Assembly (NCBI GenBank): GCA_049840815.1
Contig: JASGJI010000017.1
Location: 344,133-408,132, forward strand
Reading direction: 5' to 3'
Length of the DNA stretch: 64,000 bases
DNA from: Thermomicrobiales bacterium
Lineage (GTDB): Bacteria; Chloroflexota; Chloroflexia; Thermomicrobiales; UBA6265
Positions within the stretch are counted from its first letter, which is position 1; each line of letters begins with the position of its first letter. Both the position numbers and the translations under genes were made by a program. The notes under the pieces were generated by a model that was given only the letters and a program-made list of their open reading frames with translations, was not told the origin of the DNA and made no database searches. Positions 3,509 to 52,430 of this stretch are shown here, piece by piece.

Positions 3509-4741
3509 TCAGGCCCCGCGCAGCCGCGTGTATGGGAGGAATGGTGCCTCCCCGAGCAGTGGCAGCGCCCATTCCCGGAAGGGACGGTTCCCCTCCACGT
3601 TCGCGGTCTCCTGCCACGCCTCCGGGAGTCTGCGCACCTGGTTCGCGATGCCCTGAACCGGGACGGTCGTCACCGTGGCAGCGTAAGGGGCCGAACTGGT
3701 TCGCTGGAGCGCGGTCATCCGGGCCGTCTCCCCACGCAGGAGGGCGGCGACCGCCTCCTGACCCAGGTCCCACGCCATCGCAAGATCGACTGGCGAGGCG
3801 AGCGCCATCGCCATGCGCAGGGCGCTGCCCGGCTTCTCGAAGCGGGCGCGGATGTCCAGATGGGAGCGGGTGAGCCGCGCGAGCGCCGCGCCGGTGCTGG
3901 CGTGGTAGACGTGGCCGAAATCGTCGGTCCAGTCCGCTGCGCCGCCATCGAAGGCGACGCCATCCTGTTGCGTCAGTGTCTCCGGCACGACGACGACGGA
4001 CCAGCCGCGCCGCGCGAGGTCATCCTGCACGTCGGCGATCACCACCTCGGCCGATTCCGGCTTCTTCTCTGGCAGCAGGATGCGCGGGGCGAGGTCCGCC
4101 GCGATCTCCTCATCGGAGAAGCCGAGGCCACCCGCCGCCGCGACCCACCCGGCATCGCGCCCTGCAACCTCGATGAATTTCACCGGGTAGAGCTCCGCGC
4201 TGGAGAGGGTGTCCCACGTCGCGTCGCGAACGTAGGTGGCGATCGCCTTCGCCATCGAGGGGTAGCCGGGGCAGAAGTCGGTCTCCAGCAGGTCGTTATC
4301 GACCGTCTTCGGGACGGCGATGACCTGCAATGCCTGCTTGCGGGCGGCGGCGTGGGCGGCCAGCCGATGCGCGGTGTCCGCCGAATCGTTGCCGCCGATG
4401 TAGACCATCGCCGTGATCCCGTGCGCGGCCAGGAGATCGAGCGCCGGGTCCAACTCGGCTTCCGTCAGCTTGCGGCGGCTGGTCCCCAATGCGGAGGACG
4501 GCGTGCGACGAAGGCCGTCGAGGGTTGCGGCGTCGAGGCCAGTGAGATCCATGAAGTCCGCGCCCATCAGGCCGTTCGCGCCGTGGAGCATGCCGAGGAT
4601 ACGGGGGAACGCCCCCGATGCCTGCGCGGCAGCGATGACTCCGGCGAGGCTGGCATTGATGGCGGCGGTCGCGCCACCGGACTGCCCGATCAGGAGGGTC
4701 GGGCCGGCGGAGATCGGCGTGAGGGTCATGGGGTGGATCAT
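3509..4741 (-). CDS. 6-phosphofructokinase family protein (possibly PPi-dependent)
   Basis: PFK motifs IGQSGGATAAINA, YIGGNDSADTA and PKTVDNDL. The ATG at 4741 overlaps the upstream stop codon (ATGA, 4738-4741). Confidence 0.8.
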   Translation of the reverse strand: MIHPMTLTPISAGPTLLIGQSGGATAAINASLAGVIAAAQASGAFPRILGMLHGANGLMGADFMDLTGLDAATLDGLRRTPSSALGTSRRKLTEAELDPALDLLAAHGITAMVYIGGNDSADTAHRLAAHAAARKQALQVIAVPKTVDNDLLETDFCPGYPSMAKAIATYVRDATWDTLSSAELYPVKFIEVAGRDAGWVAAAGGLGFSDEEIAADLAPRILLPEKKPESAEVVIADVQDDLARRGWSVVVVPETLTQQDGVAFDGGAADWTDDFGHVYHASTGAALARLTRSHLDIRARFEKPGSALRMAMALASPVDLAMAWDLGQEAVAALLRGETARMTALQRTSSAPYAATVTTVPVQGIANQVRRLPEAWQETANVEGNRPFREWALPLLGEAPFLPYTRLRGA

Positions 4742-10429: not shown

Positions 10430-10559
10430 GTGTTGAGTTGCAATAGGTTGTTGCGGATTCCGGCGTTCCGTTCCTTGGCCGGGTTCCCTCCGATGCGGGT
10501 GTGGGGTCGGGTGGTTTTGTCGCTCTCACCCCGGCCGAACACTGCCTCGCCCCATCCTC

Positions 10560-11455
<896 letters not shown>

Positions 11456-39788: not shown

Positions 39789-40181
39789 TCAGTTCGGTGG
39801 GTTCCCGACTTCCACGACCGCGACGCGGTCCGCGCCGAGCATGTCCAGCACGCAATGGATTGGCCGGGGGATGGCGTGACGCACCGTGTTCCGGTCAACG
39901 GTCTGGAACGCGCCGATCGGCAGGGTGACGCCGTGTGTGGTGAGGCTCGCCGGCCCGCCCGCCTCGATATTCCGCTGCCAGTCCGTTGTCTCGCCGTAGG
40001 TGAGGGCGATGATGTACCGATCGCCATCGCGAAAGGCCAGCAGTGGCACGGTATAGGGCTTCCCGCTGCGACGCCCGGTGTGGGAGATGAGGATGAATGG
40101 CGGGATGCGGCCGGCGAAATGATGGGTGATGCGGTTCAGCCCATCGCGGTTCACCTTTGCGATCGCGCGGGGAATCGGCAT
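39789..40181 (-). CDS. nitroreductase-family deazaflavin (F420)-dependent oxidoreductase-like protein (DUF385)
   Basis: 130 aa. The pattern ILISHTGRRSGKPYTVPLLAF...DWQRNIEAG matches the DUF385/PNPOx-like pattern. ATG follows AGGAG. Confidence 0.5.
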   Translation of the reverse strand: MPIPRAIAKVNRDGLNRITHHFAGRIPPFILISHTGRRSGKPYTVPLLAFRDGDRYIIALTYGETTDWQRNIEAGGPASLTTHGVTLPIGAFQTVDRNTVRHAIPRPIHCVLDMLGADRVAVVEVGNPPN

Positions 40182-40205: not shown

Positions 40206-41009
40206 TCAGGCGTAGATGTCGCGGCGGTTGAAGAGCATCGTGGCGGCGAGGGTGAGGATGATGGTCGCGCCAAGCAGCGTCGCCATGCCCGGCCACCACA
40301 GTCCTTCGGTGACCGCGACGCCATAGTAGTTGTAGGCGGAGAACCAGCGCACCCAGGAGATCGATGGCGCCAGCCGTCCGATCACGTTCAGCAGGTACAT
40401 CAGGAAGAGCACGCCCGCCGGAATGCCCAGCGCCCACGAGCGTTGCCGCACGATGGACGATATCGCCAGCGAGAGCGCCCCGAAGGCGATTGAGAGGGGC
40501 CACAGCGCGAACGCGGCTCGCCATGCCTGCCGCACCGTGAGGCTGAGATCGAGTACCTGCGCCATGCCCCAGAGCACGACGGCCAACGCGCTCACGATGG
40601 CCAGTAGGTACGTCGCGATCACCAGGAAGGAGCCGATCACGATCTGCCAGCGCGGCAGCAGATTCCCGAGCAGGATGTCCAGCCGGCCACGTTCCTCCGC
40701 CCCTGCGATCACGCCGGAGAGGGCGATCATCGCGAAGAAGGGCAGCAGGATCGGCAGGATCACGCCAAACACCTGCGCCGAGAGGAACGACGCCAGCTGC
40801 GTGAAGTCCGTGATGTTGAACGCCGCCCGCATGTTCGCGGGCAGGGCGTTGAGGTTCAGCGCCCCCCGGATCGACGGATAGACCGAGACGAGCACCCCCG
40901 TATACAGCGACAACCCGACTGCCCAGAAGAGCGTCGTGCGCCATTCCGCGCGGTAGCGGAACGTCGTGTAGATGCGGAAGGTGTCGGCGGTGGAGGTGGA
41001 AGTGCTCAT
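40206..41009 (-). CDS. ABC-2 type transporter permease
   Basis: 267 aa with six hydrophobic segments and an ABC-2 permease-like N-terminus (FRYRAEWRTTLFWAVGLSLYTGVLVSVYPS). Confidence 0.65.
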   Translation of the reverse strand: MSTSTSTADTFRIYTTFRYRAEWRTTLFWAVGLSLYTGVLVSVYPSIRGALNLNALPANMRAAFNITDFTQLASFLSAQVFGVILPILLPFFAMIALSGVIAGAEERGRLDILLGNLLPRWQIVIGSFLVIATYLLAIVSALAVVLWGMAQVLDLSLTVRQAWRAAFALWPLSIAFGALSLAISSIVRQRSWALGIPAGVLFLMYLLNVIGRLAPSISWVRWFSAYNYYGVAVTEGLWWPGMATLLGATIILTLAATMLFNRRDIYA

Positions 41010-41010
41010 G

Positions 41011-42213
41011 TCAGACGCCTTGGGGCGATGGGTGCGGCTGGGCGCGGGTGCGGAGCGCGAGGACGATCAGGAGGGATAGTGCCAGAGTCGAAAGGCCTGT
41101 TGCCAGCAGCAGTGCCCTGTCCGCGCTCGCGTGGGTCAGGATGGCGGCAAAGACGGGCGGCGCGGTCGCGAAGGCAAGGTTCAGCGGAAGTGCCAGGCGC
41201 ATCGAGGCACGGGCGTAGGCCTCCCGCGGGAAGACTGCGAGGGGAATCGTGCTGCGGGCAACGGCCATCGTGCCACCCGCAAGGCCATACATCACGACAA
41301 AGGCGAACACCACCGTGCTCCCCGTTCCTACCAGGAGCAGGATGTACGCCAGTGGGAGGACGGCCGAGGCCATCAATCCGGAGGTGAGGCCGCTCCAGCG
41401 TTTCCCGCCGAGCACATCCACCGCCCGGGCACCGATCTGGATCAACCCGAGCGACGATGCGATGGCGACCGCTTCCGTTCGGGAGAGACCGCGATCCTCG
41501 AAGAGGGGGATCAATGTCAGCGAGAAGCCCCAGGTGATGAAGCCGTTGGCGGCGATGGCCCCGGCCATCAGCCAGAAGGCCGACCAGTCGAGCGAAATCG
41601 TCCCGGTCGCGGCGGTGGCAGCGTCCGTTTTCGCGACCGGCTCGTGCGCCGGGACGGCCCAGCGGATCAGCGGCAGGCAGATGACGAGGAAGCTCGCCGC
41701 CATGACGGCGAGCGTGATGCGCCATCCGGCGGCATCGTCGAGCGCGTTGGCGAGCGGCCAGAAGATGGTGGAGGCGAGGCCGCTGAAGAGCGCGAGGATA
41801 CCGATCCATTGTCGGGCGTTGTCCCCTGCGATGTCGGCGACGGCGATCTGGGCGGCGGTGGTGAGGATGCCCGCCCCGGCGACCCCGAGCAGCACCCATG
41901 GCGCGAGGTAGGTGATGCGGCCCTGCGCCCCCGCGAGCAGGAGCAGGGCCAGCGAGGCGAGGATGGTGCCAGCCGTCATTACCGCGCGGGTGCCGAATCG
42001 CTCGAAGGTGCCGGCGAGAAACCACGAGATGGCCGCCAGCACGACGAGCATGACGGTTGGTCCCAGCAGGGCGACAGTGAGGCTGAACCCGAGATCGGCG
42101 GCGATGCGATCTCCCAGCACGCCGGGAAGGTTGAAGGTGGACCCCCAGCCGATGATCTGGGTGATTCCGATCGCTCCGACCCGGGGGAGCAGTCGCAAGG
42201 AGTCTCGTCGCAT
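41011..42213 (-). CDS. MFS transporter
   Basis: About 400 aa with ~12 hydrophobic segments. The stop (41011-41013) lies 1 nt from the downstream permease start. Start uncertain (ORF extends to 42351). Confidence 0.75.
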   Translation of the reverse strand: MRRDSLRLLPRVGAIGITQIIGWGSTFNLPGVLGDRIAADLGFSLTVALLGPTVMLVVLAAISWFLAGTFERFGTRAVMTAGTILASLALLLLAGAQGRITYLAPWVLLGVAGAGILTTAAQIAVADIAGDNARQWIGILALFSGLASTIFWPLANALDDAAGWRITLAVMAASFLVICLPLIRWAVPAHEPVAKTDAATAATGTISLDWSAFWLMAGAIAANGFITWGFSLTLIPLFEDRGLSRTEAVAIASSLGLIQIGARAVDVLGGKRWSGLTSGLMASAVLPLAYILLLVGTGSTVVFAFVVMYGLAGGTMAVARSTIPLAVFPREAYARASMRLALPLNLAFATAPPVFAAILTHASADRALLLATGLSTLALSLLIVLALRTRAQPHPSPQGV

Positions 42214-42357
42214 CGTCCCTGAACCTTCGTGTGTCGTGTCCGATCTGGCCGGCGCTCTCCGTATGGAAAGCTTTTCATACGACCGCATGTTCGCATGTCG
42301 AGGGTCAGATGGGAAGGGCGCACGAGCATTCCAGACGGTGCCGACAGTCATGTGCCG

Positions 42358-43374
42358 TCAGGCATAGTAGGTGAGGAAGAGTTCCTCCAGCGGCGGACGT
42401 TCGGCGTCGAACATCTCCACGGGGTGGTCGCTTGCCAGCTTCACGATGGCGTCCATGCCGCCGTGCGCCTGGAACGTCAGGCGGCGCCCGTCGTCGTCCA
42501 CGGCGAACTTCTGGACGCCGGGTGCGTTCGCGAATGCCTGGATCGTCGCTGGGTTCAGCGGCTGGGCGAACTGGATGCGCACGTAGCGGAAGGCGCGTTC
42601 GGTGAGGGCCGAGGGCTGCTCGATCGCGGCAAGCTCGCCATCGCGGATGATGCCGACGCGGTCGGCGAGGCGTTCGACTTCGGAGAGGATGTGGGAGGAG
42701 AAGAAGATCGTGCCGCCCGCCGCGCGTGTTTCATCGAGGATGGTCAGGAACTCTTCCTGCACCAGGGGATCGAGGCCGCTCGTGGGTTCGTCGAGCGTGA
42801 TGACGTCAGGGTGATGGAAGAGCGCCTGGATGATGCCCATCTTCTGCTTGTTGCCGCGTGAGAGGCGGCGCATCGGGCGGGTGAGGTCGGCATCGAGGCG
42901 TTCGGCCAGCTGGCGGGCGTAGGGCAGGTGCTCTTGCGCGCCACGGAGGTCGGCGAAGAAGCGGAGCATCTGCTCCCCGGTCATGCGGTCCTCGAGACTG
43001 AACTCGCTGGGCAGGTTCCCGAGCCGGCGGTGGATGGCGACGGCATCGCGCTGGCTGTCCATGCCGAGGACCTCGGCGCGGCCGGAGGTGGGACGGAGGA
43101 AGCCGAGGATCGTGCGCAGGGTGGTCGACTTGCCCGCGCCGTTTGGCCCGAGGAAGCCGAAGATCTCGCCGCGCTCGATGCGCATGGTGACGTTGCGGAT
43201 GCCCCGGTTCTCGCCGTAGGTCTTGGTGAGGTCGAATGTCTCGATGGCGGGGGATGATGGCACCGGGGACTCCTGCACGATTGCTGGGCCGCCGGTCGTT
43301 GCGGAAGGCGGTTGCGGGAAGTCTACTGGTGCGGAGGGGATGTCGCCGTCACGACCAGCGCGAGAGTCCTCCAT
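42358..43374 (-). CDS. ABC transporter ATP-binding protein
   Basis: Walker A GPNGAGKST, signature LSRGNKQK, Walker B VITLDEPTSGLD. Start uncertain (43374 or 43416). Confidence 0.85.
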   Translation of the reverse strand: MEDSRAGRDGDIPSAPVDFPQPPSATTGGPAIVQESPVPSSPAIETFDLTKTYGENRGIRNVTMRIERGEIFGFLGPNGAGKSTTLRTILGFLRPTSGRAEVLGMDSQRDAVAIHRRLGNLPSEFSLEDRMTGEQMLRFFADLRGAQEHLPYARQLAERLDADLTRPMRRLSRGNKQKMGIIQALFHHPDVITLDEPTSGLDPLVQEEFLTILDETRAAGGTIFFSSHILSEVERLADRVGIIRDGELAAIEQPSALTERAFRYVRIQFAQPLNPATIQAFANAPGVQKFAVDDDGRRLTFQAHGGMDAIVKLASDHPVEMFDAERPPLEELFLTYYA

Positions 43375-44263
43375 CCCGCTGCGCTTTCCGGATGCCGGCC
43401 CGGAAGGCTGATGCACCCAATGCCAGCGAGCCGAGCGTCATGACCGCGACGATCAGGACATCGCTGGCGAGCGGCGAGAGTGTCCCGATCCGGGCCAATG
43501 GCGCTGGGTGATCGTGCAGCAGCAGGCGGCGGATCGCGTCGATCGTGTAGGTCTGCGGCAGGCAGCGGGCGACAGCATAGAGCGGACCTGGCAGCTCCGA
43601 TGGTGGGAAGTACGCCCCCGCGACCAGACCCTGCAGCACGCCGACCAGCCATGAGATGGGATCGTTGAATCCCTTCGCGTTGATCAGCATGAACATCGAC
43701 GCCGAGATCAGACCGATCCCGAGCACGGCGAGCGTTCCCAGAATCAGCACCCCGGCTGCCAGCAGCAGGTCACCCGCGCTGGCGGATAGCCGTGCCCCGA
43801 ACGCCGCCCCGATCCCCACCAGGAACATTGCGCTGATCGTCGCGTTCACGAGGATCCAGAGCACATCGCCGATCACATTCACGATCAGCGGGCAGGGTGA
43901 GAACATCAGCGATTCCAGCCGCATCGACCAGTAGGCGTCGGCGATAGAGTGATATGGCCCGGTGAGCGCCTGTTGCAGGAAGGTGTTGATGACGATGCCG
44001 ACCGCTAGGAATCCGGCGGTCGCGGCGGTCCAGGTCTCCCCGCCGATGGCGCGGCCCACGAAGAAGAAGACGCTCGCCTGCGCGAGCATCGTCAGGATGT
44101 CCATCACCGAGCTGACCCGGAATTGCAACCAGAGCTGTGCCTGCCGCCGCATCAGCACCGGGATGATGTTCGCCAGGTAGGGCCAGCCACGTACCGGCGG
44201 TGGGTCGAAGCGGCCTGCCTCGGGCGGGAACGGACGCTGGGATGAGGGTTGGAGGTCGATCAT
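43349..44263 (-). CDS. ABC-2 type transporter permease
   Basis: 304 aa of multi-TM protein. ATGA overlap with the upstream ATPase gene (44260-44263). Confidence 0.7.
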   Translation of the reverse strand: MIDLQPSSQRPFPPEAGRFDPPPVRGWPYLANIIPVLMRRQAQLWLQFRVSSVMDILTMLAQASVFFFVGRAIGGETWTAATAGFLAVGIVINTFLQQALTGPYHSIADAYWSMRLESLMFSPCPLIVNVIGDVLWILVNATISAMFLVGIGAAFGARLSASAGDLLLAAGVLILGTLAVLGIGLISASMFMLINAKGFNDPISWLVGVLQGLVAGAYFPPSELPGPLYAVARCLPQTYTIDAIRRLLLHDHPAPLARIGTLSPLASDVLIVAVMTLGSLALGASAFRAGIRKAQRDGGLSRWS

Positions 44264-45339
44264 GCGGCAAGCTCTTCCAGGATGGGTGCGTCCGGTTCGG
44301 GCATTCCCCGGGTCACGTCGAAGAAGACGTCCTCCAACGATGGGGCGATGGCATGAATGGCATTGGGTTCGAGTCCGATTCCACTCGCGATGGTGACGAG
44401 GTCGCGCTGGTCGTTGCCGTCGCCGAGGAGGATGCGCAGGGTCGTGCCGGTCTCGGTTGGGAACTCTTGCAGACGCAGGATCGCCGGGTGATCGCGCAGC
44501 CTCGGGATTGCGTCATCCTGCGCGGTCGTGATCCCGATCTCCGCGACGCGCTTTGCCCGTGCGGCGAGCAGCGCGGACGGGGTGTCGCAGGCGACGATGA
44601 GGCCGCGATGGACGATCGCGACCCGGTCGCAGAGGCGCTCGGCCTCGGTCATGTTGTGGGTGGTCATCAGGACGGTCTGGCCAAGCTCTCGGTTCAACTT
44701 CGTACGGATGAACTCCTGGATGTCGGCTGCGGAGATGGGATCGACATTCGCGGTCGGTTCGTCCAACACGAAGCAGGGCGTCAGCGAAAGCAGTCCCTTC
44801 GCGATGGCGAGGCGTTGCCGCATCCCGCTGGAGAACGCCATCGGGAGTGTCGCGCCCTGATCTTCAAGTCCGACTGCTAGCAGCGCTTCACGCGCTCGCA
44901 CCGTTGTCGTGGCGGCGTCGAGGCCAAAGAGCCGACCCCAGAACGCGAGGTTGCGATCCACGGAGATGTGCGAGTCGAATGAGAGCCAGCCGCCCGATGG
45001 CACGACCGAGAGCGACGCTCGCGCCTCGGCGGGTTGGCGCTGGACGTCGTATCCGGCGATGCGGATGGTGCCGGTCGTCGGGGCGAGGATGGTGGAGATG
45101 ATCTTGACGAGCGTCGACTTGCCGGCGCCGTTTGGCCCGAGCAGGCCGAAGAACTCCCCGGCTCGCACGTCGAACGAGACATCCTCCACCGCGACGGTGC
45201 GGCCCTTGCTCGCCCCGTGAAAGAGATTCTTCCGGCCGAGCAGGCTCAGCAGGTAGTCGACCCACATGTCCTGCGAATTGGAGTTGGCGTTGGGATTCGC
45301 GTACGTGAAGACCTTCGAGACGTGCTCGACCTCGATCAT
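44260..45339 (-). CDS. ABC transporter ATP-binding protein (DrrA-like, with extra C-terminal domain)
   Basis: Walker A GPNGAGKST, signature FSSGMRQR, Walker B FVLDEPTANVD. ATG follows GGAG. Confidence 0.85.
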   Translation of the reverse strand: MIEVEHVSKVFTYANPNANSNSQDMWVDYLLSLLGRKNLFHGASKGRTVAVEDVSFDVRAGEFFGLLGPNGAGKSTLVKIISTILAPTTGTIRIAGYDVQRQPAEARASLSVVPSGGWLSFDSHISVDRNLAFWGRLFGLDAATTTVRAREALLAVGLEDQGATLPMAFSSGMRQRLAIAKGLLSLTPCFVLDEPTANVDPISAADIQEFIRTKLNRELGQTVLMTTHNMTEAERLCDRVAIVHRGLIVACDTPSALLAARAKRVAEIGITTAQDDAIPRLRDHPAILRLQEFPTETGTTLRILLGDGNDQRDLVTIASGIGLEPNAIHAIAPSLEDVFFDVTRGMPEPDAPILEELAA

Positions 45340-45415: not shown

Positions 45416-46633
45416 TCAGGGGTGTGTTGAAAGTGTCTGGTCGTCGATCAGGAGGAGCCGCGTCGCGTCCGGTGTGTACGCAAAGGTGATCGACGCCGTG
45501 CGCTGGACGGCGGAGAGCGTAACGAGGATCGCGCCCTGTCCCTCGACCGTTGTCTCCTGAATGGGCTCGGTGCGGATCTGTCCTTCATTGCGCCAGAATG
45601 CGTTCCCGCTCGGGTGGTTCATGGCGACGCTGCTCAGGTTGCCCTGCTGGTGCAGGTTGCCGCATCGCGGGCACCAGAACTCGATGTTCCGATCTGGATC
45701 AGTGGTTTGTACCCAGGGCGTTGGCCGGGTGAATACCGGGGTGGAACAGCGCGGGCAGCGGACCAGGTCATCACGGTGCATGATCGTCCAGAGTGTGCCA
45801 AACGTGCGGTCGAGCAGTTCCTGGGCCGACATCGATGGGGAAAGGCTGGCGGTGTTCCCGGGAATCCTGGTGTCAACGCATCGAGGCGGGCGGAACCAGC
45901 CCATCACATAGTGGGTGGCTTCTGCGCAGCAGACCGGGCAGTGCAGGTGGTAGCTAGATCCATCGCGCCAGACGGTCTTGATGAGTCTGGTCGATCCGCA
46001 GGTCGGGCACCAGAGGCGTGAAGGTGTTGTGATCGTCGGGGAAATCGCGGCAAGAGCGTCCGCGAAATCCGCCGGGAAGAGTTCGTCGATGGCCTTGCGG
46101 ACCGCGTTCCGCGCCCGTTGTAGACGCACACCGACATGCGCGGCGGTCTGGCCCTCTGCGAGCGCGATGTCTGCGATCGATTCCTCCTGCAGGTATCGCC
46201 GTACCAACAGGTCGCGCGCGGCCGGGGCGACCGTTTCCAGTGCCCGTCCGAGGGCGTTCCGAAGCTCGTCCTGCTCGCTGAACCAGACTGGGTCAAGGGC
46301 ATCGTTGGTGTCCGGCAGCGTGTCGGCAAGCGCCTCCGGATCGAGGGGGTCGAGCCGGGAGCCTCCAGCCGCACGTTGCCAGCGCAGGAGCACATTGCGG
46401 GCGATCGCCGCCAGCCAGGGCCGGGCGCCACGGTCCCCGATCGTGAACCGAGCCCGAATCCGCCACGCCTCGACCAGTGTCTCCTGCGTCAGGTCCTCCG
46501 CGAGCGATGCCTGGCCGCCGCAACGGGCCAGGAACCAGCGGACGAGCCAGTCGCGTTCGGCGGCGACGGTCTCGTTAAACCCCGCGTGGGACTCGATGAT
46601 TGGGTGTCGGTGGGGGTGGTTGATGGCGGCCAC
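45416..46633 (-). CDS. ECF-type RNA polymerase sigma factor with a ~220-aa Cys-rich C-terminal extension
   Basis: Sigma-2 region (DLTQETLVEAW...WLAAIARN) and sigma-4 region (RRYLQEESIADIALAEGQTAAHVGVRLQRARNAV). The C-terminal domain carries CPTC...CPVC and CPRC...CPRC. GTG start lies 9 nt after AGGAG. Confidence 0.75.
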   Translation of the reverse strand: MAAINHPHRHPIIESHAGFNETVAAERDWLVRWFLARCGGQASLAEDLTQETLVEAWRIRARFTIGDRGARPWLAAIARNVLLRWQRAAGGSRLDPLDPEALADTLPDTNDALDPVWFSEQDELRNALGRALETVAPAARDLLVRRYLQEESIADIALAEGQTAAHVGVRLQRARNAVRKAIDELFPADFADALAAISPTITTPSRLWCPTCGSTRLIKTVWRDGSSYHLHCPVCCAEATHYVMGWFRPPRCVDTRIPGNTASLSPSMSAQELLDRTFGTLWTIMHRDDLVRCPRCSTPVFTRPTPWVQTTDPDRNIEFWCPRCGNLHQQGNLSSVAMNHPSGNAFWRNEGQIRTEPIQETTVEGQGAILVTLSAVQRTASITFAYTPDATRLLLIDDQTLSTHP

Positions 46634-46718
46634 GGGCGGCGACTCCTGGTTGGCGAGCGATCCTTCCGTCCGCTCCTGTCCATCAATCGCGATTCATGGC
46701 CGGACCATAACAAGGAGT

Positions 46719-46858
46719 GAGGCGAGAGAAGTGAGAAGTGAGACGAAAAATGAAGTACGGAGATACGCTCCTGAGGGTCCACCTCGATGGGCGAATCCCG
46801 GGCCGCGGTCATGGCGGCCCTTCACCCTATCTCACTCACTTCTCACTTCTCTCGCCTC
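46719..46858. repeat. 24-bp perfect inverted repeat flanking a 92-nt spacer; copy 2 of the purine/pyrimidine-arm family
   Basis: gaggcgagagaagtgagaagtgag (46719-46742) is exactly complementary to ctcacttctcacttctctcgcctc (46835-46858). Confidence 0.7.
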
Positions 46859-46868
46859 TTACCTCACG

Positions 46869-49196
46869 CTAGAGGCGGCGCTGGAAGGCGCTCATCCGGC
46901 TCGGGACTGGGGGCGCTGTGTTGCTCTCCAGGTGATATGGCACGCTCGTGACCACCGTGCCGGGGCGGAAGAGCAGCGCCGCCTTGATGCGCAACGCCGA
47001 CTGATTGTGCAGCGCTTGCTCCCACCAGTGACGCGGGATGTATTCCGGCAGGACCACTGTCAGCACCGAGTTCGGCGACTGCTTCTGCAACTCGTCCAGA
47101 TAGGTCAGGAATGGACCGACCAAGGAGCGATAGGGCGATTCGATGATGATCAGGGGCACATCCGTGGTCATCTGCGACCACCCGGTGCGCATCCGCTCGA
47201 TCTCCTCCTCGTCGTCGGAGACGTGGACCGCCGTCACGTTATCGGAGATCGACCGTGCGTAGGCCAGCGTCTGCTGGGCGATCCGGTTCGCCGCGGCCAC
47301 CGGCACGACGACGACGTTGTGGATCTCCTCCGTCCGCGTCGGGGTCAGTTCCTGCAACTCCTTCGCGGCCTTCATGTAGTGCTTGTGGATCGAGCGGAGG
47401 CCGAACACCAGGCACGGGATCAGCACCACCACGATCCAGGCACCGTGGGAGAACTTCGTGATCCCCACCACCACGGCCACGATCGCGGTCGCGCCTGCGC
47501 CAACAGAGTTGATGACGATGCCCTGCTGCCAGCCCGCCTCCTTCCGCCGCTTCCAGCGCATCACCATGCCGAACTGGGAAAGCGTGAAGGAGGTGAAGAC
47601 GCCCAGCGCATAGAGCGGGATCAGGCGCTCGGTTTCGCCGCCGAAGATCGCCAGCACCGTTGCCGAAAGCACCCCGAGGGTGATGATGCCGGTCGTATAG
47701 GCCAGGCGATCGCCCCGGAAGGTGAACTGCGTCGGCAGGAACTTGTCACGCGCCATGAAATAGGAGAGGCGCGGGAAGTCGGAATAGGCCGTGTTTGCCG
47801 CCAGCACGAGGATCAGCATCGTGGCGAACTGGATGAAGTAGAAGGGCAGGTTGCGCCCGCCGAAGACCGCTTCCGCGATCTGCGCGACGACGGTCTGATA
47901 CCCAGCCTCCGTCTGCGCCATTGGCACCGCGCCGTATTGGTGCGCGAGGAAGGTGATGCCGGAGAACGTCACCGCCAAGATGCCGATCATCCACGTCAGT
48001 GTGGTGCGGGCGTTCACCCATTCCGGTTGCTTGAAGGCCGGGACGCCGTCGGAGATGGCTTCCACGCCGGTAAGCGCCGCGCATCCGGAGGAGAACGCGC
48101 GGAGGATGAGGAAGATGCCGACCGAGCTCGTGCCCACCAGGGCTTCCCGCGTCGGTTCGTGGACGGGGAAGCCATTCGCGGCGTTCCTGGCGAACCCGAT
48201 GGCGAGCATGATGCCGATGCTGACGAGGAAGACGTACGTCGGCACGGCGAAGATCGAGCCGGACTCGCGGATGCCGCGCAGGTTCAGCATCGTGATCAGG
48301 ATGATGAAGGCGATGCCGGTGATCACCAGGTGATCGTGGACCTCCGGGAAGGCGGAGACCATCGCGGCGACGGCACTGGAGATACTCACCGCCACCGTCA
48401 GCACGTAGTCGATCAGCAGGGCGGAGCCGGCCACGAGGGCGGGCATCTCGCCGAGGTTGTCCTTGGCGACGATGTACGATCCACCGCCGTGCGGATAGGC
48501 CTTGATCGTCTGCCGGTAGGAGAAGCCCACGATCAGCAGCAGGACGACGATTGCTCCACCGATCGGTAGGCTGAGCGACATCGCACCCAGCCCCGCCATC
48601 ACCAGGATGCGCAGGATCTCCTCCGAGGCGTAGGCCACGGACGAGAGGGCATCGGAGGAGAGGACCGCCAGCGCCTTCAATTTGGTCAGGCGCTCGTGGG
48701 CGGCGGAGGCGGTGGTCAGCGGCGCGCCGATCAGCACGCGCTTCACCCTGTTGAAGCGGCGCGAGAACTCGCTGCGACCGGCGGTGGTCTCTTCGCCGGC
48801 CACGAGGTATCCAGGCGCGACGCGCTGGAAGTCATCGCGGTTCTGGCGAATTACCTTGACGTAACGGTCGCCGGGGTGTGAGCCCTGCATCTTCAGCTTG
48901 CCGGAGAGATCCGGATTGATCTGCGGTCCCGGCTTGCGGGGCGGCTTGACCTTCGGCTTGCGGGGCATGCTCTCGCCGCCCAGTGGCCCATCGATGCCGG
49001 GAGTGGCGGTTCGCCCATCGGGAGAGTCCACCGTCGGCGGCATGGCCGCGCGGGCGGGCTGCCCGGTATCGGGTGATGCGGCCTGGCCGGGATCAACCCT
49101 CGATGGAGGATCGCTCTCGGGGGCTGATTCCCTGGGGGTGGAGGATCGCTCAACGCGGTCCGGAACGGGTGATTCCGTATCTTCATGTGCCGACAT
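46869..49196 (-). CDS. APC family permease with a large cytoplasmic C-terminal domain
   Basis: LAVLSSDALSSVAYASEEIL...YPHGGGSYIVAKDNLG is typical of APC-superfamily permeases. About 12 TM segments, then a ~200-aa soluble tail. Internal ATG at 49196 chosen. Confidence 0.75.
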   Translation of the reverse strand: MSAHEDTESPVPDRVERSSTPRESAPESDPPSRVDPGQAASPDTGQPARAAMPPTVDSPDGRTATPGIDGPLGGESMPRKPKVKPPRKPGPQINPDLSGKLKMQGSHPGDRYVKVIRQNRDDFQRVAPGYLVAGEETTAGRSEFSRRFNRVKRVLIGAPLTTASAAHERLTKLKALAVLSSDALSSVAYASEEILRILVMAGLGAMSLSLPIGGAIVVLLLIVGFSYRQTIKAYPHGGGSYIVAKDNLGEMPALVAGSALLIDYVLTVAVSISSAVAAMVSAFPEVHDHLVITGIAFIILITMLNLRGIRESGSIFAVPTYVFLVSIGIMLAIGFARNAANGFPVHEPTREALVGTSSVGIFLILRAFSSGCAALTGVEAISDGVPAFKQPEWVNARTTLTWMIGILAVTFSGITFLAHQYGAVPMAQTEAGYQTVVAQIAEAVFGGRNLPFYFIQFATMLILVLAANTAYSDFPRLSYFMARDKFLPTQFTFRGDRLAYTTGIITLGVLSATVLAIFGGETERLIPLYALGVFTSFTLSQFGMVMRWKRRKEAGWQQGIVINSVGAGATAIVAVVVGITKFSHGAWIVVVLIPCLVFGLRSIHKHYMKAAKELQELTPTRTEEIHNVVVVPVAAANRIAQQTLAYARSISDNVTAVHVSDDEEEIERMRTGWSQMTTDVPLIIIESPYRSLVGPFLTYLDELQKQSPNSVLTVVLPEYIPRHWWEQALHNQSALRIKAALLFRPGTVVTSVPYHLESNTAPPVPSRMSAFQRRL

Positions 49197-49760
49197 GGCG
49201 CCTGCGTGCTCCCCGGAGCGGGGGAGGGTGGCGAGCGACGCTGGCAGACAGCAGGGCGATGGATGAACGCATCCGGCAGCCCCACCTGCTGGCGTCTTCG
49301 CGAATCCGGTCCGTTCGCTCCGAATACCCTGTGAAAACGCTGGTCCTGTCGCCGTGGATGGCGCCGCCGCGTGTCGAGCGGTGCGGCATGAATGCCACAA
49401 CACCGTCGGCGCCGCGAATAGTACGTCCTTGCGCGAACGTATACAAGGTCGGCGTTCACTGCGCCTCCGCTCACGCACATCTCCTGCCTCCGTTCGCCAT
49501 GCCTCGAAACGCTGTCGCCCGACGGTGCGTTTATGCTGTCATCAGGAATGGGGCGCGTCCCGCCGTCCCATTTGATGGAGGCGAATGACCGGGAAGCCGG
49601 TTCGCCAGGAGGCCATTGGGATTGACGCCATGCTGCTTCGCCGACTGGATGGTCGCGCGGGGCCTTGGCCAGTCGGCTCGTCATCGACATCCGGGCAGCA
49701 TGCTGTTCCCCTGACATTCGGGCCGGCCACCAATCAGAGGAGGAGCAGGTGAAGGAGCGC

Positions 49761-52430
49761 ATGACATCATCCGTGCCCGCCCAGAGCGAGGGGCGCGCGC
49801 GCAAGACGATGAGTCCGCTGGGGCGGATGATCGGGATGCGACAGCGCGGGATCTCGCGTGGGTTCGCGTTGGTCTCGATGCTGGCCGTGCTCATGAGCCT
49901 GGCGCCGTCGTTTGCGGCGGCTGCCGCGGTGGGAGGCGCCGGGAACACGACCGCGGTCGCGGCGCAAGGCGCATTGCCGAGCATCACCATCGACGTGAAG
50001 ACGTGTGCGCCGACGACGGGCACATCCGATGAGGCCCAGGCCCGGACGTGGGGCGATCTCTCTGCCGCGTGCACGCAGCCATTGGCCGACATCACCACGC
50101 ATCTGACCGCCACGGCGAACGGCCAGGACACCCCGAAGACATCCAATGCGAATGGCAGGATCTCCTACGACAGCCTGCAACCGGGCGACTACACGATGTA
50201 TTCCGACATCCCGCGCGGAACGGCCTGGGAGGTCGTCTACTGCTCGGTCGATGGCGGCGCGCCATACCAGAAGACCTTCAACGACTCGATTGTGACCACG
50301 TTCTCCGATCTGGAGACCGAGCAGGTGGTCTGCACCTGGTTCGTGATCCCGGTCGAAACCGCCGACGCCTCCCCGACGCCGACTGCGGAGGCGACCGCCA
50401 CGACGCCCGCAGTGGAGCCGACCCCGACTGCGACCGAGGGCACGGATGCCCCGCAGAGCGGCGTCATCACCGTCGATGCGTTCACCTGTCCGACCGGAAC
50501 CGGTCTCGGCGACAACGCATCCTTCCAGGACCTCAATGCCGCCTGCACCACGTCTGCCCTCGACGTGACGGTTCACCTGACGGATCAGGCGACGGGGAGC
50601 GACGATCCCCAGAACACGGGGTCCGGCGGGCTCCTCACGTGGGATGGTCTCGATGCTGGCGCCTACGATGCGTGGACGGACATTCCGCGCGGCACCGCGC
50701 ACGAGCTCCTTTTCTGCTCCAACCTCGCCGGTGCCATCTTCCCGGTCGACTTCAACGAGAACATCGTTGCGACCTTCCAGTTGGCGGCGGGTGAGCGGTT
50801 CGACTGCTCGTGGTTCATCGTGCCGACCGATACCTCCGGCGCAGCGGAGGACACCCCGACGCCGACGGCGACTGACACCGAGGTGCCGACCGCGACCACC
50901 ACCACCACGCCAACGGAGACCGCTGCTTCGACCGCGACCGCGGTCAGCGAGACGTCCCTGACGGTGCATCTCGCGCTCTGCCCGCAGGACTACACGGGGA
51001 ACGCCTATTACGACGACTGCCACGCGAATGGCGTGGATGGCATGGAGTTCCTGCTCGACGGCCCGGACGGCCAGCAGAGCGAGACGACCACGCTGCCGCA
51101 GACGCCGGGACCCGGTGTCGCGACCTTCTCCAACCTTACCGGTGGCGACTACACCCTGGCGGGCGGGCCTCCCGGCGATTTCGGTGAAGTCGTCCTCTAC
51201 TGCTCTACTCAGCCCGACAACACGCCCGTTGACGCGCCGGTGAGCAGCACGCAGGCGTCGCTGACGATTGACGCAGGTGAGAACGTCCTCTGCGACTGGT
51301 ACTACATCCCGGAGAACGCGCAGGGCGAGACGCCGACCGCCACCCAGACCACGGTCCCCACCGCCACGCCGTCCCCGACGGCCACGGCCACCGAGGCTCC
51401 GCGCGCCGAGATCCTGGTCACGCTTTACAGCTGCCCCGCGACTGGCAGCACCTACGGTGGCGCGACCTACGACGAACTGAAGAACGCCTGCGGGACGACG
51501 GTCGATAACGTGCCGTTCTCCCTGGGCGATGTCGGGGCGCCACCGTTGGTGGCGAACACCGGCATCTCCGGACCGGGCGCGGTTCGCTTCTACGACCTGC
51601 TGCCCGCCGACTACACCCTCTCGCCGGCGCTGCCCGATTCGCTCACCAGCACGGCGGTCTTCTGCACCGTGGACGATGGTGACCGCTACCAGAAGGCGCT
51701 CCAGAACGGCGGGGTCACCTTCGTGAATGTCGAGTCGGATCAGATCACCTGCGACTGGTTCGCCGTCTCGGCGCCGCAGCCGACGATGACGCCGACCGTT
51801 CCGTCAGTCCCGACCGCAACGGTGGCTCCATCACAACCGACGCCGACCACGCCGGCCCAACCGACCTCCACGCCGGTGGGCGCGACCGGTTCGATCACCG
51901 TTCGCGAATATCTCTGCGCCAAGGACAAGTCGGCGATCACCGACTGGGAGCGCGAATGCACGCCGGGCAGCAGTGGCGGTACCTTCCTGCTCACCAACAG
52001 CCAGCTTGGCGTTCGCACCGAGGGCACGACCGCGCAGAACGGCGTGCTGGTCTTCGCGAAGCTGAAGGATGGTCACTACGACCTGAAGCTGGAATCCGGT
52101 GCCTGGTGCCGGGCCACGGCCGACCGGGTCGATAGCGAGAGCCGCGTGATCGTGGCAGACGGCACCAACACCGACGTCGTGATCTATCAGTGCAATGCGA
52201 CAACCTCGCTACCAAGCACCGGCACCGGCACCCAGATCAGTTCGAGCGACCGCAACACGGTGGTCATGTTCGCGGTCCTGGCGTTGGTGATCGTGTCGGC
52301 GACCCTTGCCGCGATCAGCGTGATGACCTTCGTGCGGACGGAGCGTCGTCGCCGGGTGGATGGCCCCCGCGAAACGACCGGCGTGCCGGTCCGGACCGCG
52401 TCGGGCCGGATGCGCATGCGCTTCCGGTAG
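49761..52430 (+). CDS. LPXTG-anchored surface protein with five tandem four-cysteine repeat domains
   Basis: Signal peptide GFALVSMLAVLMSLAPSFAAAAA. Five ~100-125-aa repeats are separated by Thr/Pro linkers. The C-terminal sorting signal is LPSTG (52209-52223), followed by a hydrophobic segment and RTERRRR. Confidence 0.8.
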   Translation: MTSSVPAQSEGRARKTMSPLGRMIGMRQRGISRGFALVSMLAVLMSLAPSFAAAAAVGGAGNTTAVAAQGALPSITIDVKTCAPTTGTSDEAQARTWGDLSAACTQPLADITTHLTATANGQDTPKTSNANGRISYDSLQPGDYTMYSDIPRGTAWEVVYCSVDGGAPYQKTFNDSIVTTFSDLETEQVVCTWFVIPVETADASPTPTAEATATTPAVEPTPTATEGTDAPQSGVITVDAFTCPTGTGLGDNASFQDLNAACTTSALDVTVHLTDQATGSDDPQNTGSGGLLTWDGLDAGAYDAWTDIPRGTAHELLFCSNLAGAIFPVDFNENIVATFQLAAGERFDCSWFIVPTDTSGAAEDTPTPTATDTEVPTATTTTTPTETAASTATAVSETSLTVHLALCPQDYTGNAYYDDCHANGVDGMEFLLDGPDGQQSETTTLPQTPGPGVATFSNLTGGDYTLAGGPPGDFGEVVLYCSTQPDNTPVDAPVSSTQASLTIDAGENVLCDWYYIPENAQGETPTATQTTVPTATPSPTATATEAPRAEILVTLYSCPATGSTYGGATYDELKNACGTTVDNVPFSLGDVGAPPLVANTGISGPGAVRFYDLLPADYTLSPALPDSLTSTAVFCTVDDGDRYQKALQNGGVTFVNVESDQITCDWFAVSAPQPTMTPTVPSVPTATVAPSQPTPTTPAQPTSTPVGATGSITVREYLCAKDKSAITDWERECTPGSSGGTFLLTNSQLGVRTEGTTAQNGVLVFAKLKDGHYDLKLESGAWCRATADRVDSESRVIVADGTNTDVVIYQCNATTSLPSTGTGTQISSSDRNTVVMFAVLALVIVSATLAAISVMTFVRTERRRRVDGPRETTGVPVRTASGRMRMRFR

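Follow-up and report, generated by a model that had tools for sequence, protein, structure and literature searches.

Within a 64,000-nucleotide stretch of DNA from a Thermomicrobiales bacterium (hereafter, the window), the gene at 45416–46633 encodes an extracytoplasmic function (ECF) sigma factor with a large C-terminal domain of the DUF7351 type, and is followed immediately by drug-type exporter genes. The same fusion recurs across a family of Chloroflexota proteins; an exporter gene directly follows the sigma gene in most loci examined, and an ECF-type promoter motif is strongly enriched upstream of it. We consider the chances somewhat better than even that these genes form an autoregulated one-component ECF sigma/exporter system, in which the fused DUF7351 domain stands in place of an anti-sigma factor. 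An earlier note, made from the letters of the window alone, had described the gene and proposed that the domain could be a redox or metal sensor; the existence of a whole family with a conserved ECF-type promoter goes beyond it.

An ECF sigma factor with a fused C-terminal domain

An AGGAG precedes the GTG start codon of the gene by 9 nt, and a relative (locus L002) has ATG at the equivalent position. The gene and the two conserved regions of its sigma core are as follows.

45416–46633 (including the stop codon), minus strand: ECF sigma factor gene with a fused DUF7351-type C-terminal domain, 405 aa (open reading frame (ORF) listing, Pfam, NCBIfam and family alignment)
46367–46546, minus strand: sigma-70 region 2, residues 30–89 (PF04542, 36.8 bits; helices in the AlphaFold2 (AF2) model)
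46106–46258, minus strand: sigma-70 region 4.2, residues 126–176 (PF08281, 27.6 bits)

Both Pfam scores exceed their cut-offs (24 bits for Sigma70_r2 and 25.7 bits for Sigma70_r4_2), as does the score against NCBIfam TIGR02937 (sigma70-ECF; 64 bits, cut-off 42.9), and other sigma regions are unmatched, which places the protein among the ECF (group 4) sigma-70 factors, as the earlier note had read it from its sigma-2 and sigma-4 regions. The best NCBIfam subfamily is TIGR02989, at 68.5 bits below its cut-off of 124.6. A Foldseek comparison of the full-length model with the PDB matched ECF sigma factors only, for example SigL, SigE, AlgU and SigW. Looking up the exact sequence of the protein gave no recorded match.

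The region after sigma-4 is about 215 aa long, of which about 205 aa form a folded soluble domain. Its four CxxC motifs start at C209 (CPTC), C232 (CPVC), C293 (CPRC) and C321 (CPRC); the spacing CPTC-x19-CPVC and CPRC-x24-CPRC is exactly that given in the earlier note, and the tail of about 80 residues described there counts 81. The window protein contains neither an HxxxCxxC nor a CxC motif, and no cysteine between residues 39 and 208. The highest mean Kyte–Doolittle hydropathy over 19 residues is 1.21 in the window protein and at most 1.51 across the family, from which we conclude that the family has no transmembrane helix.

A family of DUF7351-fused sigma factors

HMMER, run exhaustively over 1.84 billion representatives of clusters at 50% identity with a profile of the window protein and two close relatives, returned 216 representatives at E ≤ 1e-3, nearly all 370–410 aa long and with the domain match at about residues 190–390. 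Such a search was needed to reveal the family, because a word-indexed homolog search with residues 190–405 gave just two close relatives. In a full-length alignment of 41 members, all 41 have sigma regions 2 and 4, and 37 have four CxxC motifs in the extension. Cysteines C209, C212, C232, C293, C296 and C321 are invariant in this alignment, and conservation is 90% or higher for C235 and C324. HxxxCxxC occurs in 2 of the 41 members, and the anti-sigma zinc-finger family zf-HC2 (PF13490) has no Pfam match in the window protein or in any of the 41.

Pfam PF24042 (DUF7351) is matched by 27 of the 41 at E < 1e-3, and precomputed matches exist for the family proteins P0001, P0004 and many others. 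The window protein itself scores 23.0 bits (E = 7.5e-5, residues 209–364) against a gathering cut-off of 31.2. Its close relative P0001, 72% identical, matches DUF7351, and the homology of the window protein to DUF7351 is clear when judged through the family profile. The Pfam entry carries no functional information, and a literature search for DUF7351 or PF24042, or for ECF sigma factors with a zinc ribbon, in Chloroflexi or with major facilitator superfamily (MFS) transporters, found no study. The DUF7351-fused ECF architecture, catalogued by Pfam solely as a domain of unknown function, is thus uncharacterised, which the earlier note had suspected.

A genome scan with close alignment found two Thermomicrobiales metagenome-assembled genomes (MAGs) with relatives at 96% and 64% identity. 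All named relatives are Chloroflexota, comprising Thermomicrobiales MAGs, Anaerolineales, Chloroflexota and ‘CHL1’ soil bins, and the members come almost entirely from the metagenomes of uncultured soil Chloroflexota. Homologs of 158 aa that appeared to stand alone were considered as a separate family and rejected; they are gene calls from an internal methionine on truncated contigs.

Predicted structure of the C-terminal domain

Three folded parts can be told apart in the domain from the cysteine columns, the conservation list and the AF2 models.

45896–46036, minus strand: zinc-ribbon-like module 1, residues ~200–246, with C209/C212 and C232/C235 (invariant Cys columns; AF2 beta-hairpins)
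45638–45763, minus strand: zinc-ribbon-like module 2, residues ~291–332, with C293/C296 and C321/C324 (invariant Cys columns; AF2 strands)
45434–45637, minus strand: C-terminal alpha/beta subdomain, residues ~333–400 (predicted local distance difference test (pLDDT) score 89–96; conservation list)

Starting from sigma-4, the AF2 models run through a short helix, module 1, a variable loop, a helix and module 2 to the alpha/beta part. A conserved W-x-x-T-R-[IL]-W precedes the first cysteine of module 1, which is predicted to form beta-hairpins at 200–208, 216–222 and 228–231 with a pLDDT of about 90. The variable loop (~247–269) is of low confidence and leads into the helix at 270–286, and module 2 contributes strands at 301–304, 316–321 and 325–332. 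The alpha/beta subdomain is the best-predicted part of the protein, with two helices followed by a five-stranded sheet; the helices bear the conserved motif F346-W347-R348...R352-x-R354...P357. Modelled with the family alignment, the full-length protein has a mean pLDDT of 81 and a predicted template modelling score (pTM) of 0.57, and the domain alone a pLDDT of 81 and a pTM of 0.78.

A Foldseek comparison of the domain-only model with the PDB gave no match with E < 0.1. The best, non-significant matches are NTF2-like or curved-sheet proteins over about 75 residues (E ≥ 0.15, TM-score ~0.3, probability ≤ 0.38). Comparing a hidden Markov model (HMM) profile with PDB sequences likewise gave only chance-level matches to zinc fingers: ZPR1, RPA12 (both ribbons, E = 0.069) and a ribbon of the TFIIS type.

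Exporters follow the sigma gene

Downstream of the sigma gene, on the same strand, lie two ATP-binding cassette (ABC) systems of the ABC-2 type and an MFS transporter.

44260–45339, minus strand: ABC transporter ATPase 1, DrrA-like, 76 nt 3′ of the sigma gene (PF00005, 97.6 bits)
43349–44263, minus strand: ABC-2 type permease 1, overlapping the stop codon of ATPase 1 (PF01061, 27.6 bits)
42358–43416, minus strand: ABC transporter ATPase 2 (PF00005, 90.4 bits)
41011–42351, minus strand: MFS transporter between ATPase 2 and its permease (PF07690)
40206–41009, minus strand: ABC-2 type permease 2 (PF12679, 53.6 bits)

ATPase 1 scores 222 bits against TIGR01188 (drrA), under the cut-off, and the true start of ATPase 2 is probably downstream of the listed GTG, its ortholog in the related locus L003 being 329 aa long. 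The upstream neighbour of the sigma gene on the same strand is an AA_permease_2 transporter with its stop at 46869. The ORF listing and Pfam reveal no anti-sigma-like gene flanking the window sigma gene, and the neighbours are transporters only, both here and in the related loci with gene listings. The stretch from the sigma gene to ATPase 1 contains no predicted canonical intrinsic terminator, and co-transcription of the sigma gene with the exporters is very probable. The earlier note had made the same two points, that no anti-sigma gene is adjacent and that the ABC exporters apparently belong to the same transcription unit.

The pairing extends across the family: of the 35 loci examined, 30 have an exporter immediately 3′ of the sigma gene. 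ABC systems follow it in the window, L001, L002, L003, L007 and L008, and MFS_3 transporters in L006, L010 and L012. Among the more distant family members, P0006 has ABC_tran and ABC2_membrane genes downstream, P0021 has two MsbA-like fused ABC exporters, and P0009, P0045 and P0015 have MFS_3 transporters. The sigma factor of L003 and L004 (P0004) is just 35% identical to that of the window and keeps its neighbourhood, in the order SdrD-like surface protein, AA_permease, sigma-DUF7351, ABC/ABC-2 and ABC/ABC-2.

For a further 38 metagenome loci, the plus-strand ORF starting beside the sigma stop codon was taken, and of the 26 ORFs so obtained, 18 are MFS_1 or MFS_3 transporters and 3 are ABC ATPases. 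Relative to the sigma gene, these ORFs start anywhere between an overlap of 59 nt and a gap of 266 nt, most of them within about 35 nt. The MFS partners match the TIGR00900 (DHA3 H+ antiporter), Tap, Mef(A), EntS and Tet(V) models, all below the equivalog or subfamily cut-offs. Across the family, the exporters fall into DHA3/Tap/Mef-like MFS, DrrAB-like ABC-2 (the window) and MsbA-like ABC classes, and no scanned downstream gene matches a metal-efflux family.

Several further observations concern these loci. The product of the window MFS gene weakly resembles ArsK, an arsenite exporter (146 bits, cut-off 400); L001 has this gene too, and the more distant syntenic L003 lacks it at the same position. 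A gene similar to F420H2-dependent quinone reductases (39789–40181, minus strand; PF04075, 36 bits) begins 25 nt 3′ of permease 2 and may be the last gene of the sigma–exporter operon. A stretch of about 1.9 kb, window 43176–45113, is missing from the 96%-identical L001 (compared with L001 8461–8514), and its break-points fall inside the two ABC ATPase genes, which are paralogs; either a recombinational deletion in L001 produced a hybrid ATPase or the ABC-2 system was tandemly duplicated in the window. On the plus strand, 49665–52430 encodes a repetitive surface protein of 921 aa that combines SdrD_B/SpaA-like domains with an LPSTG sortase motif and, C-terminally, a transmembrane segment, and its counterpart in L003, of 901 aa, holds the equivalent relative position.

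A conserved ECF-type promoter motif

The interval that separates the sigma gene from the permease gene upstream holds two elements, of which the one nearer the sigma gene is conserved in sequence.

46685–46712, minus strand: putative autoregulatory ECF-type promoter, TGTTAT-N17-CGATT (conserved in relatives)
46719–46858, unstranded: perfect inverted repeat of 24 nt, its arms separated by 92 nt, between the sigma promoter and the permease gene upstream (long hairpin)

The promoter-like sequence, read from 46712 to 46685, is TGTTATGGTCCGGCCATGAATCGCGATT, with a −35-like TGTTA at 46708–46712 and a −10-like GCGAT at 46686–46690, about 52 nt 5′ of the GTG start. Upstream of the sigma genes of L001, L002, L003 and L008 stands TGTTATGG-N14-(G/A)CGAT(T/A), and L003 and L008 keep it though the DNA around it is not alignable. 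Variants at other loci are TGTAAGG, TGTAATAT, CGTAACAT and CGTTAG, each followed by GCGATA, mostly at a spacing of 16–18 nt.

The general form YGTWA-N16-18-RCGAT is found in the window and in six of the eight earlier related loci (L001, L002, L003, L007, L008 and L012). Of the 27 usable metagenome loci, 12 also have it in the 310 nt lying upstream of the sigma gene, a density of 1.47 per kb, as against 5 matches in 378 kb elsewhere in these loci on both strands, or 0.013 per kb; the motif is thus about 100-fold enriched upstream of the sigma gene. Promoters of Bacillus subtilis sigmaX and sigmaW have the form TGnAAC-N16-17-CGnn, and those of sigmaX, sigmaW and sigmaM share an AAC-like −35 and a CG-containing −10, 16–17 nt apart. 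The family motif resembles such classical ECF promoters and is therefore read as the family’s own target promoter; by sequence conservation, it would be the sigma factor’s own promoter, that is, the sigma–exporter operon would be positively autoregulated.

The earlier note had proposed looking for an ECF-type motif shared by the sigma gene and the ABC genes; the motif stands upstream of the sigma gene, but the specific form has no other copy in the window, including before the ABC genes, at up to 3 mismatches. A looser family consensus has one more match, at 4294 on the plus strand, which is at the chance or background rate.

Directly 5′ of the −35-like element, an A-rich tract (for example gaaaaaacgTGTAA) is present in L007, L012, L013, L023, L026 and others; the window’s own clade has no such tract and has a hairpin arm there instead. 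In the window this arm belongs to the long inverted repeat, and its sequence is not seen elsewhere in the window. A 171-nt stretch containing the repeat has a folding energy of −92.9 kcal/mol (z = −8.9). At this place L001 carries a hairpin with a short loop and about 100 nt fewer, and L002 likewise has a hairpin. The hairpin at 46719–46858 is a probable terminator or insulator.

Proposed mechanism and alternatives

In the mechanism that we favour, the sigma factor would recognise its own promoter, TGTTAT-N17-CGAT at 46685–46712, giving positive autoregulation, and from it would drive the co-oriented downstream exporters, which in the window are the two DrrAB-like ABC-2 systems and the MFS transporter, and in most relatives a DHA3/Tap/Mef-like MFS pump. 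The fused domain would substitute for the absent anti-sigma factor by gating the sigma factor in cis in response to a cytoplasmic cue. Unrelated as they are, the three exporter classes all belong to the drug-, peptide- or lipid-export type, and we therefore take efflux to be the physiological output. Judged from these pumps, the cue would most likely be a toxic organic compound or an antibiotic-type stress, not a metal, and the Cys4 zinc ribbons would most likely be structural scaffolds.

A more specific form of this proposal, which we put forward tentatively and think rather doubtful as a whole, is that DUF7351 is a hitherto unrecognised ligand-sensing fold in which the zinc ribbons scaffold an alpha/beta pocket with the FWR...RxR motif, that this pocket binds antibiotics or xenobiotics directly and allosterically frees sigma-2 and sigma-4, that DUF7351 sigma factors thus sense drugs as one-component systems and make up the main inducible circuit by which soil Chloroflexota regulate efflux, and that as such they would constitute a new ECF group.

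Several points weigh against the favoured mechanism. The strict promoter motif is absent from 15 of the 27 metagenome loci, and the promoter was assigned from conservation alone. The 76-nt gap between the sigma and ABC genes contains two short hairpins, although neither has a T-run, and some relatives have long gaps between the sigma gene and the exporter (400 nt in L003 and 150–270 nt in several others); a second copy of the motif was not found in the L003 locus, the other long gaps being covered by the scan and not individually. The full-length AF2 model, with its pTM of just 0.57, gives no evidence for contacts of the domain with sigma-2 or sigma-4. Neither Foldseek nor the HMM profile comparison with the PDB found a fold or sequence relative with a known ligand, and the identity of the signal comes solely from guilt by association with the pumps.

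The cysteines themselves offer a different sensor. The two Cys4 sites could respond directly, with thiol oxidation and zinc release, or the binding of another metal, remodelling the domain and switching the sigma factor, by analogy with CorE and with RsrA and other zinc-binding anti-sigma (ZAS) factors. Eight strictly conserved cysteines in four CxxC pairs are what such a sensor would have, the quinone-reductase-like gene after the last window permease could fit a redox signal, and there are precedents for cysteine or zinc control of ECF sigma factors in ZAS anti-sigma factors and in the CorE/CorE2 extension (PMC8999054). However, the pumps of the family are drug- or peptide-type MFS and ABC transporters with no metal-efflux match among the downstream genes scanned, the window protein has neither HxxxCxxC nor CxC, zf-HC2 is found in none of the 41 members, and much of the strongest conservation other than cysteine falls outside the ribbons, in the FWR...RxR subdomain and in the W-x-x-T-R-x-W before ribbon 1. 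Cys4 zinc ribbons are, moreover, typically inert, structural sites. We judge direct sensing by the cysteines fairly unlikely, and the metal half of the earlier note’s ‘redox or metal sensor’ finds no support: it is weakened because the co-encoded exporters are of the drug type and not the metal type, and the protein has neither the HxxxCxxC of ZAS factors nor the CxC and tail of the CorE type. The redox half, acting through the thiolates, may yet hold.

Alternatively, the domain might not sense anything and be an obligatory positive module, making an extra contact with RNA polymerase or with DNA upstream of the −35 element, with control exerted solely through transcription of the sigma gene or stability of the sigma factor. 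Zinc ribbons commonly bind RNA polymerase or nucleic acid, as in TFIIB/TFB, TFIIS and RPA12, and the best PDB profile matches of the domain, at chance level, are ZPR1, RPA12 and the ribbon of the TFIIS type. The family-median net charge of the domain is +4 (pI 8.6) and many family promoters carry the A-rich tract, whereas the window domain is near neutral (+0.9), its best-conserved part, the alpha/beta subdomain, is acidic (−3.1), and the window’s clade has no A-tract. The extension of ECF42 is needed for activity (PMC8999054), but a sigma factor under positive autoregulation that receives no negative input would make a runaway loop, and we hold a purely positive role to be unlikely. By analogy with BceAB–BceS, the domain could instead dock on the cytoplasmic face of the exporter, with the transporter acting as anti-sigma factor or flux sensor; the very tight and conserved pairing of sigma and exporter genes would suit this, but the partners span three structurally unrelated classes (DHA3 MFS, ABC-2 and type I ABC), and one conserved docking interface is therefore improbable, a judgement that we extend to the docking account as a whole. 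A last explanation, that a sequencing or assembly frameshift joined a separate downstream gene to the sigma gene, has practically no probability left: although one assembly in the P0004 cluster has the protein split into calls of 243 aa and 100 aa, upwards of 100 independent representatives, drawn from many samples and including the two Thermomicrobiales MAGs, have the same single-ORF length and architecture. The extension is genuinely fused, as the earlier note had supposed, being shared by the 216 representatives with its cysteines invariant or nearly so.

A C-rich stretch elsewhere in the window

Away from the sigma–exporter locus, about 1 kb of the window (~10430–11450) is extremely C-rich on the plus strand, with a GC content of 0.71, a GC skew of −0.29 and an AT skew of −0.21. 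It reads as poly-proline on the plus strand and poly-glycine on the minus strand, and could be a gene for a low-complexity proline-rich protein or an assembly oddity.

Significance

The one-component ECF class is thinly studied, and a mechanism is attached to few extension types (SnoaL, TPR and the cysteine-rich extension of CorE). The DUF7351 family is sizeable, with at least 216 clusters at 50% identity, and its extension has a different, unassigned fold. Its wiring is clean and testable, from an own ECF-type promoter to a sigma gene to a drug-type exporter. If the domain senses the substrates of the pumps, it would show how efflux and intrinsic resistance are regulated in a poorly understood phylum and bring a sensor of a new type into the sigma-factor toolbox; if that signal is indeed a drug, it would also give synthetic biology a sigma/promoter/inducer part that is compact and potentially orthogonal. 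Were the domain merely structural, there would still be a new ECF group, defined and with its promoter and regulon predicted.

Comparison with known ECF systems

The 2021 reclassification of ECF sigma factors recognises 19 groups with extensions (PMC7826278), which are tabulated in a 2022 review (PMC8999054). Neither the main text of the former nor the latter includes a double-CxxC extension of about 200 aa or an extension group of Chloroflexi origin. As in the known extension groups, more than 50 conserved residues follow sigma-4 (in the 216 representatives) and no anti-sigma factor is co-encoded in the window or in the related loci with gene listings. One of the closest likenesses is to ECF41 and ECF56 (Mycobacterium tuberculosis SigJ and Streptomyces tsukubaensis SigG1), in which an ECF core also carries a soluble extension of 100–200 aa and no anti-sigma gene is found, and the last ~75 residues of the window protein give weak, non-significant NTF2-like hints (E > 0.1). 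The SnoaL/NTF2-like extension of ECF41 and ECF56 is thought to modulate the conformation of the sigma factor in cis (PMC8999054). However, the SnoaL/NTF2 Pfam match that marks ECF41, ECF56, ECF205, ECF294 and ECF295 occurs in none of the 41 members, and, unlike ECF41 and ECF56, the window protein has two zinc-ribbon modules before its alpha/beta part and an exporter context. ECF41 genes are found among genes for oxidoreductases, epimerases and carboxymuconolactone decarboxylases.

Cysteines in a C-terminal extension, again with no anti-sigma factor, are shared with ECF238 (CorE and CorE2 of Myxococcus xanthus), ECF287 and ECF288 (PMC7826278). CorE-type factors are metal-responsive and have a cysteine-rich tail of about 20 aa together with a required CxC in the linker joining sigma-2 to sigma-4, whereas the extension in the window is about 215 aa long with four CxxC and no CxC, the linker has no cysteine, and the DUF7351 sigma factors sit beside drug-type and not metal pumps. 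ECF288 has a CGxxGxGxCxC motif, whereas the window protein has no CxC. ECF288 is reported from Firmicutes and ECF287, which has a cysteine-rich extension, from Actinobacteria; the named relatives of the window protein are Chloroflexota. Zinc- or cysteine-containing partners also control ECF sigma factors in the case of ZAS proteins (RsrA, RsiW and ChrR), and are C-terminally fused in ECF48, ECF52 and ECF53. The domain of the window protein differs from the ZAS/zf-HC2 type in having no HxxxCxxC and no PF13490 match, and in a beta-rich fold in place of a helical anti-sigma-like bundle; it differs from ECF48, ECF52 and ECF53, whose zinc finger leads into one or two transmembrane helices with an extracytoplasmic portion, in having no transmembrane helix. 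The TPR extension of ECF42 is also distinct, as the domain has no TPR matches and is beta-rich.

Regulators of multidrug pumps, such as TetR, BmrR/MerR and the mycobacterial WhiB7–tap pair, provide a functional analogy, each being a one-component cytoplasmic regulator beside, and in control of, a DHA-type MFS or ABC exporter; the window regulator differs from all of them in being a sigma factor and has no sequence or fold relationship to them. Under-represented phyla are rich in ungrouped ECF sigma factors (PMC7826278), which fits a Chloroflexota family known almost solely from metagenomes. The DUF7351 sigma factors have a new type of extension and probably form a new ECF group. The one-component ECF principle is itself already known; what is new is the type of extension within that class.

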